This document shows positions 21,348-58,493 of a DNA stretch of 61,082 nucleotides, piece by piece (position 1 is the first letter of the stretch; each line of letters opens with the position of its first letter). A program made the position numbers and the translations under genes. The DNA lies in NCBI GenBank assembly GCA_027067775.1, contig JAMOVK010000019.1:1-61082 (forward strand), written 5' to 3'. The notes under the pieces are model-generated. The model saw only the letters and a list, made by a program, of their open reading frames with translations. It was not told the origin of the DNA and searched no databases. This stretch comes from Deltaproteobacteria bacterium. GTDB lineage: Bacteria; Desulfobacterota; Dissulfuribacteria; Dissulfuribacterales; QOAL01.

Positions 21348-22565
21348 TTAAATGTTGTAACCTATCTCACTGTGCTGTGTGATATCAAGGCCCTGAATTT
21401 CGTCATCACGTTCAACCCTGAGTCCTACAGTCATGTCAACAAGTTTTAGTATAACAAAGCTTATCGTCAATGAATATACAATTGCAGCTCCTGCACCAAT
21501 GGCCTGAATGAGAAACTGCAGGGGATTGCCAAAAAAGAGGCCGTTGGCTCCGTCAGGATTCCAGGCAACAGAGGCAAACAGGCCCGTTGCCAGTGCTCCC
21601 CATAGACCACCCACTCCATGCACGGCTACTACATCAAGGGCATCGTCGTAGCCAAGTCTTCCTTTCAGAAGGATGGCGCTGTAACATAAGGCCCCTGCTA
21701 CAAGGCCAATGATTGTGGCAGAAACAGGACCTACAAAGCCTGCGGCAGGAGTAATGGCTACGAGGCCTGCAACTGCTCCAGAGGCTGCACCAAGAGTGGT
21801 GGGCTTGCCCTGGATTATCCACTCCGCTACTACCCAGGACATCAAGGCGCAACCTGTTGCTATCTGGGTGGTAAAAAAGGCCAAGGTGGCTATCTTGCCA
21901 GCAGAAAGTGCGCTACCTGCGTTGAAACCAAACCATCCAAACCACAAGATGCCAGCACCAAGCACAGTCATTGGCAGGTTGTGAGGATGAAAGGCCTCCT
22001 GTCCCCATCCTTTCCTCTTGCCAAGCATCAAGGCTGCCACCAAGGCGGCACAGGCAGAATTTATATGTATGACCGTGCCTCCTGCAAAGTCTAGGGCACC
22101 GAGCTTCCCAAGCCAGCCGCCTTGTCCCCATACCCAGTGACAAACCGGCATATACACAAAGGTACTCCAAAGGACAGTAAAGAGCAAAAAGGCCGTAAAT
22201 TTCATTCTTTCAGCATAGGCACCAGAGATAAGTGCCGGGGTGATAATGGCAAACATGAGCTGAAAGGCACAGAATAGCAGATCTGGTATGGTGTCAGAGT
22301 ACGGGCCTGGATCCAGGCCCACCCCTTTCAGGCCTATCCAGTCCAAATTACCAATAAAGCCGCCCAGATCTGGTCCAAAAGCCAAGGAATATCCATATGC
22401 CAGCCATATAAACGAGATCAGCCCCAAGCAGCATATACTGTGCATAATAGTGCTCAAAACATTTTTGTTCCGTACCAGTCCGCCATAAAACAGGGCCAGA
22501 CCAGGAGTCATAAACATTACAAGGGCCGTTGCCACAAGCATAAATGAAGTATCACCAGTGTTCAT
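21348..22565 (-). CDS. amtB: Ammonium transporter (copy 2)
   Basis: LMFAIITPALISGAYAER, DFAGGTVIH, WFGWFGFNAGS, DDALDVVAVHG; twin His present. Confidence 0.95.
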   Translation of the reverse strand: MNTGDTSFMLVATALVMFMTPGLALFYGGLVRNKNVLSTIMHSICCLGLISFIWLAYGYSLAFGPDLGGFIGNLDWIGLKGVGLDPGPYSDTIPDLLFCAFQLMFAIITPALISGAYAERMKFTAFLLFTVLWSTFVYMPVCHWVWGQGGWLGKLGALDFAGGTVIHINSACAALVAALMLGKRKGWGQEAFHPHNLPMTVLGAGILWFGWFGFNAGSALSAGKIATLAFFTTQIATGCALMSWVVAEWIIQGKPTTLGAASGAVAGLVAITPAAGFVGPVSATIIGLVAGALCYSAILLKGRLGYDDALDVVAVHGVGGLWGALATGLFASVAWNPDGANGLFFGNPLQFLIQAIGAGAAIVYSLTISFVILKLVDMTVGLRVERDDEIQGLDITQHSEIGYNI

Positions 22566-22597
22566 AATCAGTTTTTATCCTTTTTATTATTGTTAAA

Positions 22598-23827
22598 TTA
22601 TAAGTTGTAGGCCGTCTCGCTGTGCTGCGACAGGTCAAGGCCCATGACTTCATCTTCAGGTGATACCCTAAGTCCAAACATGGCATCCACCACCTTCAGG
22701 AGCACAAAACTGACTACAAATGCATAAACCAGAACCACTGCTACACCAAAGAGCTGGGTGAAAAAGAACCCTGGGTTGCCTGCAAGGAGTCCATCTGCAC
22801 CACCTGGATTGACTGCCTTTGAAGCGAATATTCCGAGCATCAGTGTGCCGGCAAAGCCTCCAAGTCCATGGATGCCTACAACGTCGAGACTATCGTCATA
22901 GCCCAGTCTTTCTTTCATAGAAACGGCTAGATAACAGATGACGCCAGCAATAAGGCCGATGATTATGGCGGAGTTAGCGCTGATGAAGCCTGCTGCTGGG
23001 GTGACTGTTGCCAGCCCTGCAATGGCGCCTGAGGCAGCACCCAGAGTGGTTGCATTGCCCTGGCGGATTTTTTCCATAAAACACCAGGATGCCATGGCTG
23101 CCATGCCTGCCAGATGGGTTGCAATGAACGCAGTCACTGCCACTCCATTTGCTGCCAGAGCACTGCCTCCGTTGAAACCAAACCATCCAAACCACAAGAG
23201 CCCTGTCCCAAGAAGGGTCATGGGAAGATTGTGGGGCATGAAGCTGCGTTTTTTAAATCCCTGCCTCGGACCAATTACCAGTGCGGCAGCCAGGGCTGCT
23301 GCACCAGAGGTAAGATGGACCACCAGGCCGCCTGCAAAATCAAGCACCCCTTTTGCTCCAAGCCAACCACCAGACCCCCATATCCAATGACAGACCGGAT
23401 TGTAGACCAGAATTGCCCACACCAGGCTGAATATGACAAAGGGTCCAAACTTCATCCTTTCTGCAAAGGCTCCGGTAATGAGTGCAGGAGTGATGACAGC
23501 AAACATGCACTGATAAATCATGAAGAGCAGGTGTGGAATGGTAGTGGCGTAGGTATCGCTAGGTGCGGTTCCAACCCCCTTGAGGCCAAACCAGGAAAGG
23601 TCTCCAACAAAGCCGCTCACGTCCGGACCAAAGGACATGGAATAGCCTATATAGATCCATTCGAAACTGATAATGGCAATCATGATCAGACTGTGCATTA
23701 TGGTCCCAAGGACGTTTTTGTTACGCACCATTCCTCCATAAAACAGCCCAAGGGCTGGTGTCATGAGAAGAACAAGTGCTGCTGAAACAAGGATGAACGC
23801 AGTGTCTCCCGCAGATATGTGTGCCAT
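22598..23827 (-). CDS. amtB: Ammonium transporter (copy 1)
   Basis: DFAGGLVVH, WFGWFGFNGGS, DDSLDVVGIHG. Start moved to ATG 23827 (GGAGGG RBS). Confidence 0.95.
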   Translation of the reverse strand: MAHISAGDTAFILVSAALVLLMTPALGLFYGGMVRNKNVLGTIMHSLIMIAIISFEWIYIGYSMSFGPDVSGFVGDLSWFGLKGVGTAPSDTYATTIPHLLFMIYQCMFAVITPALITGAFAERMKFGPFVIFSLVWAILVYNPVCHWIWGSGGWLGAKGVLDFAGGLVVHLTSGAAALAAALVIGPRQGFKKRSFMPHNLPMTLLGTGLLWFGWFGFNGGSALAANGVAVTAFIATHLAGMAAMASWCFMEKIRQGNATTLGAASGAIAGLATVTPAAGFISANSAIIIGLIAGVICYLAVSMKERLGYDDSLDVVGIHGLGGFAGTLMLGIFASKAVNPGGADGLLAGNPGFFFTQLFGVAVVLVYAFVVSFVLLKVVDAMFGLRVSPEDEVMGLDLSQHSETAYNL

Positions 23828-23870
23828 TTCTCCCTCCATAAAACAGATTTTTTCAAGACCAAATTACCAA

Positions 23871-23886
23871 AGCAAAAAGGTTGCCA
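23871..23886 (-). promoter_or_regulatory. sigma54 (-24/-12) promoter of the amt-amt-glnB-glnD cluster
   Basis: Minus strand TGGCAA-CCTTT-TTGCT with exact GG-N10-GC spacing, ~45 nt upstream of the amt start. Confidence 0.8.
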
Positions 23887-23949
23887 CTTGAAGCTGGCCC
23901 TAACATAGTGAAATCCTAGCCAAAATTTTCCATTAGAATTTTTTGGAGA

Positions 23950-24046
23950 TTACAAAAAAGTAAAATAAATCTGACTAGGTTACAAAATTGTAAATTTTAT
24001 ATGGATTGGAAAGTTCGGGTGCAAAGGCCTGAGACAATTTGTGTCA
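23950..24046. promoter_or_regulatory. Candidate enhancer sites for a sigma54 activator
   Basis: TTACAAAAAAGTAA (23950-63), TTACAAAATTGTAA (23980-93) and TGAGACAATTTGTGTCA (24030-46) lie 65-160 nt upstream of the -24 element. Confidence 0.45.
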
Positions 24047-24209
24047 CTGTCTATAGCTTGTTTTTGTCACAGATTTTCCTATAATCTATTTTTCTGATAG
24101 AATCGGGGCATTACGGGTGTGATCTGGAAGGGAGAGGAAGAAAAAATTGGCACGGGTCATGAGATAACTAGGTGCAGCAAAAGCAATATCATTTTTTAAA
24201 GGGGGGCGT

Positions 24210-24410
24210 ATGGGTATAAACACTCTGTATTGGCTTTTTCTTGTTATTCTTTTGATATTCGTTCCTGCCAAGGGGTATTCCTGAGGTCCAAATATTCCAC
24301 TTGGTTCAAGTGAACAAAAGGTTGAAAAGCTGAAACCCCAAAAGGTTCAGGATAAGGCACCTGTTCAAAGAAAAGATAAGAAGGTAAAAAATACAGTAAT
24401 CAAGACATAG
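24210..24410 (+). CDS. Candidate small secreted selenoprotein (66 aa, in-frame TGA at codon 25)
   Basis: AAAGGGGGG RBS; MGINTLYWLFLVILLIFVPAKGYS-[TGA 24282-84]-GPNIPLGSSEQKVEKLKPQKVQDKAPVQRKDKKVKNTVIKT-TAG; SECIS-like hairpin directly after the TGA. Confidence 0.55.
24295..24314 (+). promoter_or_regulatory. Bacterial SECIS-like hairpin
   Basis: TT(C)CACTT-GGTTC-AAGTGAA: stem starts 10 nt after the UGA, has one bulged base and a G-initiated apical loop ~18 nt from the UGA. Confidence 0.55.
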
Positions 24411-24428
24411 CGGGCATCCACCACCATT

Positions 24429-24453
24429 GGGCTCCCTTTTTAAGGGGGCCTTT
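24429..24453. terminator. Hairpin between convergent genes, probable terminator
   Basis: ggctccc-tttttaa-gggggcc followed by ttt. Confidence 0.5.
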
Positions 24454-24473
24454 CCATCCAACTTATAGCCTAT

Positions 24474-25658
24474 TTAAAAGACAAATCTCTTTATATAAAA
24501 GATGCGGCCCTTCCAGATAAGTCTGGCGGTTGTACCTGACTGGAACTCCACGACCAGGGTTTCTTTGTCAAAGGCTGTTGGCATCCTATATGTACAGCCA
24601 GGGCACTGTCCGTCATGCCATTCTTTCAATATTGCAACAAATGTGGTGTCAGAAGGCCTAAAGGTATCCGAGGCAGTCCACCACAGTGGTCCACCAAATA
24701 TGTCGTAGTTGTACCATGTAAGAAACATGACATCCGACTGGGCCTCCATGAAAAGTCCCATTCCTTCAAAATTAGGGCTGTACCACCATCCTTGGATGTT
24801 TCTTGGATCCTTGTCTCCTGGAGCCAGGCTGTCCATGAATTTTACCATTGTGGCATTCCCGGATATGCCCTTGTACGTCCATGTAAAGATAGTGGAATTG
24901 GTATCCCTGAGATCAAGGTCCACAGTGCCTACAGGTTCAGGTGTCGGAACAGAATAACTGTCTTCCAGATACCATCCGTGCCATTTGTACAGGGTTCCTG
25001 AAAATGTGTTGTTTGTAACAGTGCCGTAAGAACTCATCCATATTGGGTTGCCCCTGTCGTCATAGGTGTACCATCCCATGAAAAGGTGTTCGTTTTGGAT
25101 TTCTATGGATATACCCGAGCCCAAGGCATCAGGATCGTACCACCATCCGTTTTTGTCACTGCTTCCATGTTTGTTTAGGTTTATCTTGTAATGCCAGGTG
25201 CATGATACTCCATTTGAGAAGTTGTAGACAGAGATTCCACTTCCATAGGCAGTTGTTGGAGATGTCCAGGTTATTGATATGGAATTGGTGACAGTCCCTC
25301 CGTTAGAGTCTGACAGACTGTTTGTGACCACCACGTTTTTTTCGCTTTGGAATCCTCCCTGGTATATGCACGCATCGCCAGGATTGCAGGTCATTCCTGA
25401 CAAAAATACCATGGTGACGCTGCTGGAATTTGTTCCTTGGGTAAGAGATAGTGTACCAGAGGCAGGATTGCCTGGTGGGCATGTGCCAGTAACATTATAG
25501 TTTGAAGTCGCAAAGTCCCACAGGCCGTTGATGTCAAGGTAGGCTGAATCTGCATCGCGACCTATGGAAATTCCTGCCGCGTGGCCATCTTGCTCAAATG
25601 GATAGAGACAGGCAAAAAAAAGTATAAAACATATTGAAATGATGTTGTTTTTTTTCAT
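24474..25658 (-). CDS. Secreted hypothetical protein with two tandem ~119-aa Trp/Gly-rich repeats
   Basis: Signal peptide MKKNNIISICFILFFACL; repeats GWWYDPDALGSGISIEIQ...LFMGWYTYD and GWWYSPNFEGMGLFMEAQ...MFLTWYNYD, 357 nt apart. Start moved from 25697. Confidence 0.8.
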   Translation of the reverse strand: MKKNNIISICFILFFACLYPFEQDGHAAGISIGRDADSAYLDINGLWDFATSNYNVTGTCPPGNPASGTLSLTQGTNSSSVTMVFLSGMTCNPGDACIYQGGFQSEKNVVVTNSLSDSNGGTVTNSISITWTSPTTAYGSGISVYNFSNGVSCTWHYKINLNKHGSSDKNGWWYDPDALGSGISIEIQNEHLFMGWYTYDDRGNPIWMSSYGTVTNNTFSGTLYKWHGWYLEDSYSVPTPEPVGTVDLDLRDTNSTIFTWTYKGISGNATMVKFMDSLAPGDKDPRNIQGWWYSPNFEGMGLFMEAQSDVMFLTWYNYDIFGGPLWWTASDTFRPSDTTFVAILKEWHDGQCPGCTYRMPTAFDKETLVVEFQSGTTARLIWKGRIFYIKRFVF

Positions 25659-25809
25659 AATGCACCCTCTTTTTATGTATCGATTTTTAGGTGTCACTGC
25701 TTAAATGAGCAAAAAGGAGACCAGTTGGTTAAAAGGAAGGAATGATTTTTCACCCCTTAAGCTGTATTCTGTAACGATCTTTTGATTTGAAGTGCTTTAA
25801 GAAAGGAGG

Positions 25810-56921: not shown

Positions 56922-58493
56922 ATGGAAAATAACCATCCTGTCAGGTCTAGGAGTAACCTGTCTGTTTTCTTGCCTGCCTTGTCTGTTCTTTTAGGTTTTT
57001 TGGCCGTTTTTGCCGGTCTCAATCTTTACAAGTATCTGACAACCAGACAGGATTTTTCTTCAAATGCGCTTCAGTCCATGGCAAAGGGCGATTTCGAGCG
57101 CATAGATTCCTTTTTTAAAGGAGTTGCCAACCAGCTTACGATAGTCAGGGATCTTGGCAAAAATGGGGTCTTGGACAAGTCCGATATTATTTCATTAAAC
57201 AAGAAATTTATCCCGCTTCTGAAAAATCAAAAAGTATTCAGCGGGATCATTCTGTCTGATAGCACTGGATGGGAATATTTTCTTTTTCAAGAAGATGGGG
57301 CATGGGTTACCAGGATAACAGGTGCCGCTGGTAATAATATCACTTTATTTATCAAATGGAGTAGGCCGGACAGGCCTCTAAAAAGGTGGGAAAAAAGTAG
57401 CGATTATGATCCAAGGACCAGGCCCTGGTTTAAGCAAGAGGAGAACGAGGTCCACTGGTCTGCAGTATATACTTTTTTTCAGACAGGCAGGCCCGGGGTA
57501 ACAGCATCTATAGCATGGAAGACACAAGAGCAGCAGCCTGTTACCATGGTTTTTGCAGTTGACATCCCCGTATCTCATCTCGAACATATTCTTCAGATGA
57601 AAAAGCCTAGGCCGGGAGTTGTGCCCTTTTTGCTGGATTCACGCACAAAAAAGGTGATAGCTGGCAAAATAGAGCCCTCGGAAGGAGACAGGACCAATTA
57701 CCGGCTTCTTCTGGCGGCAACTGTCAAAAAGTGGCAGACAAAGGGGATGCCAGAGGGGACGCCCTTTGCTTTAAAGTTTGACTCCAAAGACTGGTTCTCC
57801 CTTTTGATGCCCATAGCCTCCACGTCCAAAGACTTTTGGTTTGGCATGTTGGTGCCAGAGAAGGTGATTCTGGCTGATTTGAAACATACGTTCTTTAGAC
57901 TGGACCCTAAGGATATAATAGTGGCCATTTTAGGAGGATTGGCTCTTGTGTTGCTGGTCTGGAAGTTTGGAGGCCTTGGCAGAGCCGTTCAGAAGGAAGT
58001 GTCGGATCCACTCATGCGCCTTTATGATTATGTAAAAAGAGGCGAAGGGGACAAGGTAGAGTTTAAGTCTACAGTTAGGACTAACCTCCGTACAGGCAAA
58101 CAGGGAAAGGAGATAGAGCTTGCATGGCTAAAGGCTGTGGTGGCTTTTTTGAATTCAGAGGGCGGAACGGTTCTTATAGGTGTAGACGACAGTGGCCGGA
58201 TAGTTGGAATCGAACAGGATGGATTTGACAATCCTGACAGGTGTATGCTGCATGTCAAAAATCTTATAAATCAACATATTGGAGCAGAATTTTCCAATTT
58301 TATCAATACAACAATGGTTGAGGCGGATGGCAAAGAGATCGTGCTTATCGAGTGTTTCCCTTCAAACAAACCGGTTTTCCTGAAGATAGGCAAAAACGAG
58401 GAGTTTTATGTCAGGACAGGACCTTCCTCTGTAAAGCTCTCTCCAAGCCAGACCATCAACTATCTGTTACATAGCGAGAAGTTAAAGACCTGA
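56922..58493 (+). CDS. Membrane protein with periplasmic dCache-like domain and cytoplasmic Schlafen/AlbA_2 domain
   Basis: TM1; YDPRTRPWF...Y...D Cache motif; TM2; GEGDKVEFKS...AFLNSEGGTVLIGVDDSG...FYVRTGPSS. Confidence 0.85.
   Translation: MENNHPVRSRSNLSVFLPALSVLLGFLAVFAGLNLYKYLTTRQDFSSNALQSMAKGDFERIDSFFKGVANQLTIVRDLGKNGVLDKSDIISLNKKFIPLLKNQKVFSGIILSDSTGWEYFLFQEDGAWVTRITGAAGNNITLFIKWSRPDRPLKRWEKSSDYDPRTRPWFKQEENEVHWSAVYTFFQTGRPGVTASIAWKTQEQQPVTMVFAVDIPVSHLEHILQMKKPRPGVVPFLLDSRTKKVIAGKIEPSEGDRTNYRLLLAATVKKWQTKGMPEGTPFALKFDSKDWFSLLMPIASTSKDFWFGMLVPEKVILADLKHTFFRLDPKDIIVAILGGLALVLLVWKFGGLGRAVQKEVSDPLMRLYDYVKRGEGDKVEFKSTVRTNLRTGKQGKEIELAWLKAVVAFLNSEGGTVLIGVDDSGRIVGIEQDGFDNPDRCMLHVKNLINQHIGAEFSNFINTTMVEADGKEIVLIECFPSNKPVFLKIGKNEEFYVRTGPSSVKLSPSQTINYLLHSEKLKT

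Follow-up and report, generated by a model that had tools for sequence, protein, structure and literature searches.

A Predicted Family of Very Small Selenoproteins Restricted to One Uncultured Bacterial Genus

In bacteria, the insertion of selenocysteine (Sec, U) at UGA depends on a hairpin, the bSECIS element, which has a G at the start of its apical loop; the model of Zhang and Gladyshev reportedly comprises a stem-loop 3' of the UGA, a G within the first two bases of the loop and a loop lying 16-37 nt from the UGA. Most selenoprotein families also have a homologue with cysteine (Cys). Prokaryotic selenoproteins are collected in a 2026 inventory of 119 families and subfamilies, the models of which are held in NCBIfam (PMC13188914). 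Among the described systems that come closest to the locus reported here, the selenobacteriocin or SbtA product is a RiPP precursor modelled by TIGR04081 and characterized by the motif SGUG (Lewis et al. 2021, listed in PMC13188914), the small "star" selenoproteins UXX-star and KCU-star have Sec 2-3 residues from the C-terminus (Haft & Tolstoy 2025, PMC13188914), and SaoB is an exported ABC-transporter substrate-binding selenoprotein for which metal binding has been proposed (Haft & Gwadz, bioRxiv 10.1101/2022.07.06.499078). The gene described below would, as judged from comparative sequence analysis, represent a new selenoprotein family restricted to one genus, for which any function is at present a guess.

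The DNA analysed, called the window throughout, is the 61,082-nucleotide stretch of contig C19 (JAMOVK010000019.1) in a 2.4-Mb assembly of 165 contigs (GCA_027067775.1) that derives from a hydrothermal-vent metagenome and belongs to an uncultured genus of Desulfobacterota. On its forward strand, a small ORF runs from an ATG at 24210 through an in-frame TGA at 24282-24284 to a TAG at 24408-24410, a length of 66 codons with the TGA counted as Sec; codons 1-24 encode MGINTLYWLFLVILLIFVPAKGYS and the 41 sense codons following the TGA encode GPNIPLGSSEQKVEKLKPQKVQDKAPVQRKDKKVKNTVIKT. The ribosome-binding site (RBS), the 24-residue leader, the TGA, the 41 codons leading to TAG and the terminator-like hairpin were each found where an initial annotation of this DNA had put them. 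The features of the locus are as follows.

24033..24070 (+): palindrome GACAATTTGTGTC (24033-24045) and TTTTTGTCAC (24061-24070), possible activator-binding sites; GACA/TGTC-type motifs recur upstream in the orthologues
24148..24162 (+): sigma-54-like putative promoter element TGGCAC-GGGTC-ATGA, with GG at -24 and TGA instead of TGC at -12; conserved in 11/11 orthologues
24200..24206 (+): Shine-Dalgarno-like AGGGGGG, read from the sequence; in the orthologues the same ATG is preceded by AAGGAGG-type sites
24210..24281 (+): 24 codons for a predicted Sec-type signal peptide (n-region MGIN, h-region TLYWLFLVILLIFV, c-region PAKGYS), from a layout common to 11/11 orthologues and an AlphaFold helix
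24282..24284 (+): in-frame TGA, predicted Sec codon (residue 25), invariant in 11/11 species, unlike the codon before it and the terminal stop, which vary
24285..24407 (+): 41 codons for a basic, Cys-free, disordered tail, GPNIPLGSSEQKVEKLKPQKVQDKAPVQRKDKKVKNTVIKT, as indicated by dN/dS, codon log-odds and pLDDT of about 50
24295..24314 (+): bSECIS-like hairpin, from RNA folding, a position kept in all orthologues and covariation
24408..24410 (+): TAG, the true stop codon, read from the sequence and from comparison of terminal stops
24429..24451 (no strand assigned): GC-rich hairpin GGGCUCCCUU-UUU-AAGGGGGCCU with a 10-bp stem (-19.6 kcal/mol) and a weak U-tract, between the small gene and its convergent neighbour, likely a terminator shared by the two

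That gene callers would miss such a gene was expected from the outset and is borne out by the databases, in which it occurs among the proteins only as fragments split at the TGA, namely a 30-aa piece ending at the TGA (P0003) and a 44-aa C-terminal piece. The 41 post-TGA codons of the window copy include no in-frame ATG, GTG or TTG, so translation can reach this region only through the TGA. An open run of 41 codons after the TGA has a probability of about 0.07 on shuffling of the window sequence alone; the features of the window lie within chance when taken by themselves and become significant only through their conservation across 11 species.

These species all belong to one genus and represent about six independent lineages, ten having been found in a first translated search and the eleventh, G003, in an order-level search. 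Orthologues are present in 11/11 species of the genus, with a strong RBS, an ATG and the TGA in one alignment column, and they are 65-76 aa long and 27-71% identical in protein sequence to the window copy. Residues P19, U25 and G26 are invariant in the 11-sequence alignment, and W8, L11, G22, S24 and P30 are nearly so. The internal codon is TGA in every orthologue and never TAA, TAG or a sense codon; homologues with a sense codon other than Cys at this position, which the initial annotation had considered a sign of a pseudogene, were thus not encountered. The codon before it varies, mostly synonymously, among TCC, TCA, TCG and ACA, and the terminal stop is TAA in six orthologues, TAG in two and TGA in three. 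TGA accounts for 30% of the stops in the long ORFs of the genome.

Beyond the TGA, frame 0 remains open for 41-51 codons in 11/11 orthologues, against a median of about 15 codons before the first stop in the two remaining frames; by shuffling, this openness has P = 0.015-0.10 for each sequence and a joint P of about 7e-9 over the six lineages. The comparison of the window genome, G000, with G009 gives dN/dS values of 0.24 upstream and 0.21 downstream of the TGA, and of 0.14 in the tail past the hairpin, where 10.8 of 19 synonymous and 10.2 of 74 non-synonymous sites have changed (Fisher P = 1.6e-4), while frames +1 and +2 in the same comparison give 2.0 and 0.54, neither of them significant. 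Downstream of the TGA, the pair G004 and G006 shows three synonymous changes and one non-synonymous change. Codon-usage log-odds past the TGA are +0.22 per codon, the same as upstream of it and in real genes, and lie between -0.3 and -1.3 in the remaining five frames. A lack of conservation downstream of the TGA, another sign that the initial annotation had named as speaking against Sec, was not seen either; selection there is purifying, in frame 0 only (dN/dS 0.14-0.21). For the recognition of new selenoproteins, at least ten examples, 100% TGA and similarity running through U have been proposed as criteria (Haft & Gwadz, bioRxiv 10.1101/2022.07.06.499078); here there are 11 examples, all from one genus, with TGA in each and similarity extending through the U.

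The hairpin had been placed directly after the TGA in the initial annotation, which is incorrect: the inverted repeat TTCCACTT/GGTTC/AAGTGAA lies at 24295-24314 and starts 10-13 nt past the TGA. Its core is CACUUG (24298-24303)/GUU/CAAGUG (24307-24312), and when it is drawn as a 5-bp stem the loop is GGUUC, which puts the loop G at +21/+22 counted from the U of the UGA, a spacing which we take to be the same as that of G23/U24 in E. coli fdhF. The three elements of the bSECIS model introduced above, namely a stem-loop 3' of the UGA, an early loop G and the loop distance, are all found in the candidate. Judged from the window alone, the hairpin is ordinary, with an energy of -5.5 kcal/mol and z = -0.37 (+0.9 when a longer stretch is folded); 6-10% of the TGA triplets in this genome are followed by a comparable one, and an Rfam scan of 23500-24800 at E <= 10 found no SECIS or other credible RNA family.

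Across the orthologues, positions +15..+20 pair with +26..+31 in a 6-bp helix in 11/11, the loop being one base longer in G003, G004 and G006, and in all 11 the stems of 5-8 bp start at +13 to +17, with the loop at about +21. Pairing is kept in 83% of the cells of the ungapped alignment of orthologues. G002 and G005 each have one mismatch in the stem, and G003 has a bulge. Compensating changes include CCA...AGU to CCG...AGC, at third codon positions, one in a Pro and one in a Ser codon, and synonymous in both, and UU/AA to UA/UA in G001; the arms in G004, G006 and G007 are fully different yet still pair. Covariation scores 0.345, against 0.172 +/- 0.041 in shuffled alignments, none of which (0/500) reaches it, and controls slid out of register score at most 0.194. 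The loops of the orthologues read GGUUC, GGGUC, GGGCU, GUUCC (four times), AGUGU, AGUUCA/G and UGGAUC, so that at least 10 of 11 have a G as the first or second loop base, G003 depending on how its bulge is drawn. The earlier claim of a SECIS-like hairpin stands in so far as the hairpin is present and conserved; as stand-alone evidence it is weak, given the 6-10% chance frequency and the z of -0.37.

The genome has what is needed for Sec insertion, as a check proposed in the initial annotation now confirms: SelA is matched at 534.6 bits, the SelB wing domain at 68.4 bits in a 670-aa frame and selD at 362 bits, the latter gene itself having one in-frame TGA, and there is one tRNA-Sec(UCA). SelA also occurs in 10/11 species of the genus and across the family as a whole. 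When ORFs were scanned for an interrupting TGA flanked on either side by coding potential, at least five selenoprotein genes emerged that are confirmed by HMMs (Pfam), namely those for a peroxiredoxin (FTFV-U-PTEI), a [NiFeSe] hydrogenase with Sec at the large-subunit C-terminus (DP-U-ISCATH), two MvhD/FlpD proteins and one HdrA-like protein; FdhA (CARV-U-HAPS), two more HdrA and SelD were recognized by motif or model alone. The known selenoprotein genes of the genome have post-UGA hairpins with stems of 5-8 bp and loops starting at +19 to +30 (GGUC, GGUCU, GGAC, AGUU, AGGU and CGGGA), a range within which the candidate's GGUUC at +21 falls.

Two further observations concern the selenoproteome of this organism at large. 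Three HdrA-like genes of about 1000 aa (on G000 contigs C139, C66 and C156) each have an in-frame TGA in a DC-x-x-U context, which suggests that the selenoproteome is unusually large for a genome of 2.4 Mb. On the minus strand of G000 contig C150, an ORF of 1377 codons with a signal peptide and CxxCH-type haem-binding-like motifs contains an in-frame TGA (LGAW-U-PPSYRQ, at 57322 of the reverse-complemented contig), after which comes a strong hairpin, CCGCC-AGGU-GGCGG (-24 kcal/mol). By sequence, its product qualifies as a candidate multihaem selenoprotein, the first 400 residues of which match no NCBIfam model, ExtKL included.

The distribution of the small ORF is narrow. None of the other 58 genomes of the order (the order here being equal to the class) contains it, nor do 397 genomes sampled from other genera of the phylum; a search with a 4-sequence alignment for related loci recovered only the same four MAGs. 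In the sister genus g6 there is no syntenic small ORF, and the orthologue of the convergent neighbour is flanked there by a different convergent coding region. Weak order-level matches in genus g7 ("1 TGA, 1 TAG") proved spurious, lying beside tRNA-like sequence. At the protein level, a word-index search of 5.8 billion predicted proteins found no homologue, and among 1.84 billion representatives a profile recovered just two pieces of the same genes, split at the TGA, besides one repeat protein that was discarded as spurious. Metagenomes searched with a DNA pattern of the TGA form gave 22 matches, only on contigs of G001-, G009- and G010-like organisms; the pattern with Cys at the position of U gave 55 matches and no relative among them. 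Three members of the family matched none of the families of NCBIfam release 20.0 at E <= 10, Pfam gave only a chance match (DUF2681, E = 0.31), and no motif in the inventory table fits [YF]SUG (PMC13188914), so that the first impression of a protein unlike any known selenoprotein family holds against all 119 entries. A search for RNA-seq runs containing the locus or its G010 orthologue found none, the source DNA metagenome being the only data set that holds them.

The small ORF lies inside a 634-bp gap between the 5' end of the ammonium transporter gene amtB (22598-23839, minus strand; Pfam Ammonium_transp) and the 3' end of the gene for a 407-aa secreted protein (24474-25697, minus strand) that has no Pfam or NCBIfam domain. 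At least 8 of the 11 species have the small ORF in divergent orientation to the amtB operon; G001 has retained ORF, RBS, TGA and hairpin with amtB not adjacent. The amtB gene is one of two in tandem in the window (21348-23839, minus strand), and in relatives the amtB genes are followed by a gene for a 112-aa PII protein (GlnK/GlnB-like) and an 853-aa gene, a conserved nitrogen-uptake operon divergent from the small gene. As for the 407-aa protein, its C-terminal 225 residues or so form a module that most species of g1 and g6 have in roughly ten or more paralogous copies per genome, often within proteins of 270-900 aa; the protein also has a C-terminal CPGC motif.

The intergenic region has putative regulatory signals of its own. 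All 11 orthologues (loci L015-L035) have nGGCAY-N5-nTGAR 45-60 nt upstream of the ATG, and amtB has a canonical sigma-54 promoter, TGGCAA-CCTTT-TTGCT (minus strand, 23886-23871), about 300 bp away. The sigma-54-like element and the GACA...TGTC motifs also persist in G001. The small gene is probably transcribed from this sigma-54-like promoter, and the palindromes at 24033-24070 may be sites for an enhancer-binding protein of the small gene rather than of amtB.

The first 24 residues had been read in the initial annotation as a signal peptide that would place Sec at the N-terminus of the mature product or adjacent to it, a reading that fits the n-h-c layout of 11/11 leaders. Their n-regions comprise 2-5 residues with a charge of 0 or +1, the hydrophobic run 13-14 residues, and the c-region is P-x-x-[G/S]-[Y/F/V]-[S/T] directly before Sec, with Pro at -6 and small residues at -3/-1, as in Sec-type signal peptides; G003, G004 and G006 have textbook examples, MK-h-SAPxxGxS/T. 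A lipoprotein processed by signal peptidase II, with Sec in place of the lipobox Cys, was considered and rejected, the residues at -3/-2/-1 being G/S, Y/F/V and S/T in 11/11 as against [LVI]-[ASTVI]-[GAS]-C. The tail is, as first described, basic and devoid of Cys, being Lys-rich in the 11 orthologues with a net charge of +4 to +7 and a pI of 9.6-10.5, and the candidate has no Cys or redox partner motif near Sec. AlphaFold, given the 11-sequence alignment, predicts a helix only at residues 3-17, the remainder having a pLDDT of about 50.

These observations raise a double question: How is the UGA read, and where does the product go? The best explanation is that UGA is decoded as Sec in a genuine small gene, which the comparison of orthologues makes very likely, and we consider it likely that positions 24210-24410 on the plus strand of the window constitute a real gene, standing by itself and encoding a selenoprotein precursor of 66 residues. 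Were the TGA a true stop, the product would be a hydrophobic micropeptide of 24 residues, the hairpin an element of the 3'-UTR or of RNA stability and the downstream ORF incidental. The chance-level hairpin and open frame of the window, the failure to find a Cys homologue and the 30-aa fragment that gene callers end at the TGA (P0003) would all agree with this, but purifying selection confined to frame 0 past the TGA (dN/dS 0.14-0.21), a frame open for 41-51 codons in 11/11, post-TGA codon usage like that of real genes, a Gly that is invariant right after the TGA and a TGA that never swaps to TAA or TAG, whereas the real terminal stop does, render it very improbable. Very improbable, too, is a regulated recoding switch, for example a sensor of selenium availability or a near-cognate read-through, in which the ratio of truncated to full-length product would be the functional output. 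Bacterial Sec insertion is inefficient and competes with RF2, and the gene has its own conserved regulatory region, both in keeping with such a switch; however, the next gene is convergent, so there is no downstream gene on the same strand to be regulated, and the conserved SECIS-like hairpin and single tRNA-Sec(UCA) make plain Sec insertion sufficient. The use of the standard genetic code, as follows from TGA making up 30% of stops, also speaks against a switch. That there is no gene here, and the ORF arose by chance in a conserved regulatory stretch of the amtB operon, is hardly credible when ORF, RBS, TGA and hairpin are retained in G001 away from amtB, substitutions follow a codon pattern with the frame preserved and amtB has its own canonical sigma-54 promoter some 300 bp away (23871-23886), even if the ORF does sit in the 634-bp intergenic region divergent from amtB and the searched databases hold no protein homologue.

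With Sec insertion as the preferred reading, two fates of the leader come into question. Export and cleavage are favoured by the n-h-c layout, the small residues at -3/-1 and the nearly neutral first ten residues after Sec (net charge -1 to +1), and a mature product starting at Sec is on this ground quite possible, if short of likely. If the leader were instead uncleaved, the product would be a single-pass N-out/C-in membrane microprotein with Sec at the cytoplasmic face of the membrane and its basic tail in the cytoplasm, possibly in contact with AmtB/GlnK or anionic lipids. Such an anchor would satisfy the positive-inside rule, the tail having a net charge of +4 to +7 versus 0 to +1 at the N-terminus, and would accommodate the Lys found at -4 in 8/11 leaders; the conserved G-[YF]-S-U-G could then have a function of its own rather than mark a cleavage site, and the divergent arrangement of the gene and the amtB operon, seen in at least 8 of the 11 species, would be in keeping with it. 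We nevertheless regard it as unlikely, the hydrophobic run, at just 13-14 residues, being short to cross a membrane, each of the 11 leaders having after it a Pro at -6 as well as small residues at -3/-1, the signal peptides of G003, G004 and G006 being of textbook form and the first ten residues past Sec being nearly neutral.

The mechanism that we propose for the cleaved form would run as follows. A Shine-Dalgarno site and ATG open a frame running through one TGA; SelB with Sec-tRNA(Sec) would bind the short hairpin, the loop G/U of which lies about 21-23 nt after the UGA, and Sec would be inserted at position 25, as in bacterial selenoprotein genes of the fdhF type. The first 24 residues would act as a Sec-type signal peptide, cut by signal peptidase I after G-[YF]-S, and the exported peptide of about 42 aa would begin with Sec (U-G-x-x-x-P...) and continue as a polycationic (pI about 10), disordered and Cys-free tail. 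A cut exactly before Sec25, which we put forward as tentative, would leave a free 1,2-amino-selenol head on this tail, a new kind of exported selenopeptide in which Sec would have been present from the start within one genus, with no Cys ancestor; the semi-tryptic N-terminal peptide predicted to start at Sec would be, for example, U-GPNIPLGSSEQK. As the most likely role, speculative and on balance doubtful, the N-terminal amino-selenol would serve in the periplasm or at the cell surface as a single binding group for soft metals, metalloids or chalcogens, or as a redox head group, with the Lys-rich tail keeping it on anionic envelope or mineral surfaces.

If this reading is true, the prokaryotic selenoproteome gains a tiny, exported and disordered family with Sec at predicted mature position 1 and neither a Cys partner nor a Cys homologue, which sets it apart from nearly all others. 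Such a selenoprotein is necessarily missed by gene callers, which stop at the TGA and discard the 24-aa ORF, as well as by searches for Sec/Cys pairs, which need a Cys homologue. In evolutionary terms, its restriction to one genus raises a question: Could Sec be recruited at the birth of a gene, beyond the replacement of Cys by Sec in redox sites? For peptide chemists, an exported N-terminal Sec would be of interest for metal binding and selenium-mediated ligation, and a product cleaved before Sec25 might be a binder of soft metals or chalcogens or a surface-tethered handle for redox reactions or ligation.

Compared with known systems, the locus resembles genes of the fdhF type in its in-frame UGA, in a short hairpin starting about 12 nt past the UGA with a G (mostly also a U) at the start of the apical loop, some 21-23 nt from the UGA, and in the full sel machinery of its genome, the own FdhA, Prx, HdrA and SelD genes of which have similar hairpin loops. 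It differs from them in that its protein, of just 66 codons with Sec at the predicted +1 position of signal peptidase, is unrelated to known selenoenzymes and lacks a redox motif, a Cys partner and Cys orthologues. With SbtA-type precursors it shares a small ribosomal peptide, a Sec in S/G-rich context (here [YF]-S-U-G) and an N-terminal leader, but it has one Sec versus two, and a predicted Sec-type signal peptide versus a RiPP leader. Membership in this group was rejected, no TIGR04081 or other NCBIfam match being found and no radical-SAM maturase adjoining the gene, the neighbours of which are amtB and the 407-aa secreted protein. SaoB is folded, contains the motif CU, has homologues with Cys and lies in an operon, whereas the candidate is predicted to be disordered and has a single Sec, no Cys and a stand-alone gene; in common with SaoB, a signal sequence would precede a Sec-containing extracytoplasmic product. 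Unlike the "star" selenoproteins, the candidate has 41-51 residues after its Sec, a signal peptide before it and no match to their models; like them, it is very small, was earlier overlooked, and is recognized by a universal TGA and an alignment that continues through the U.
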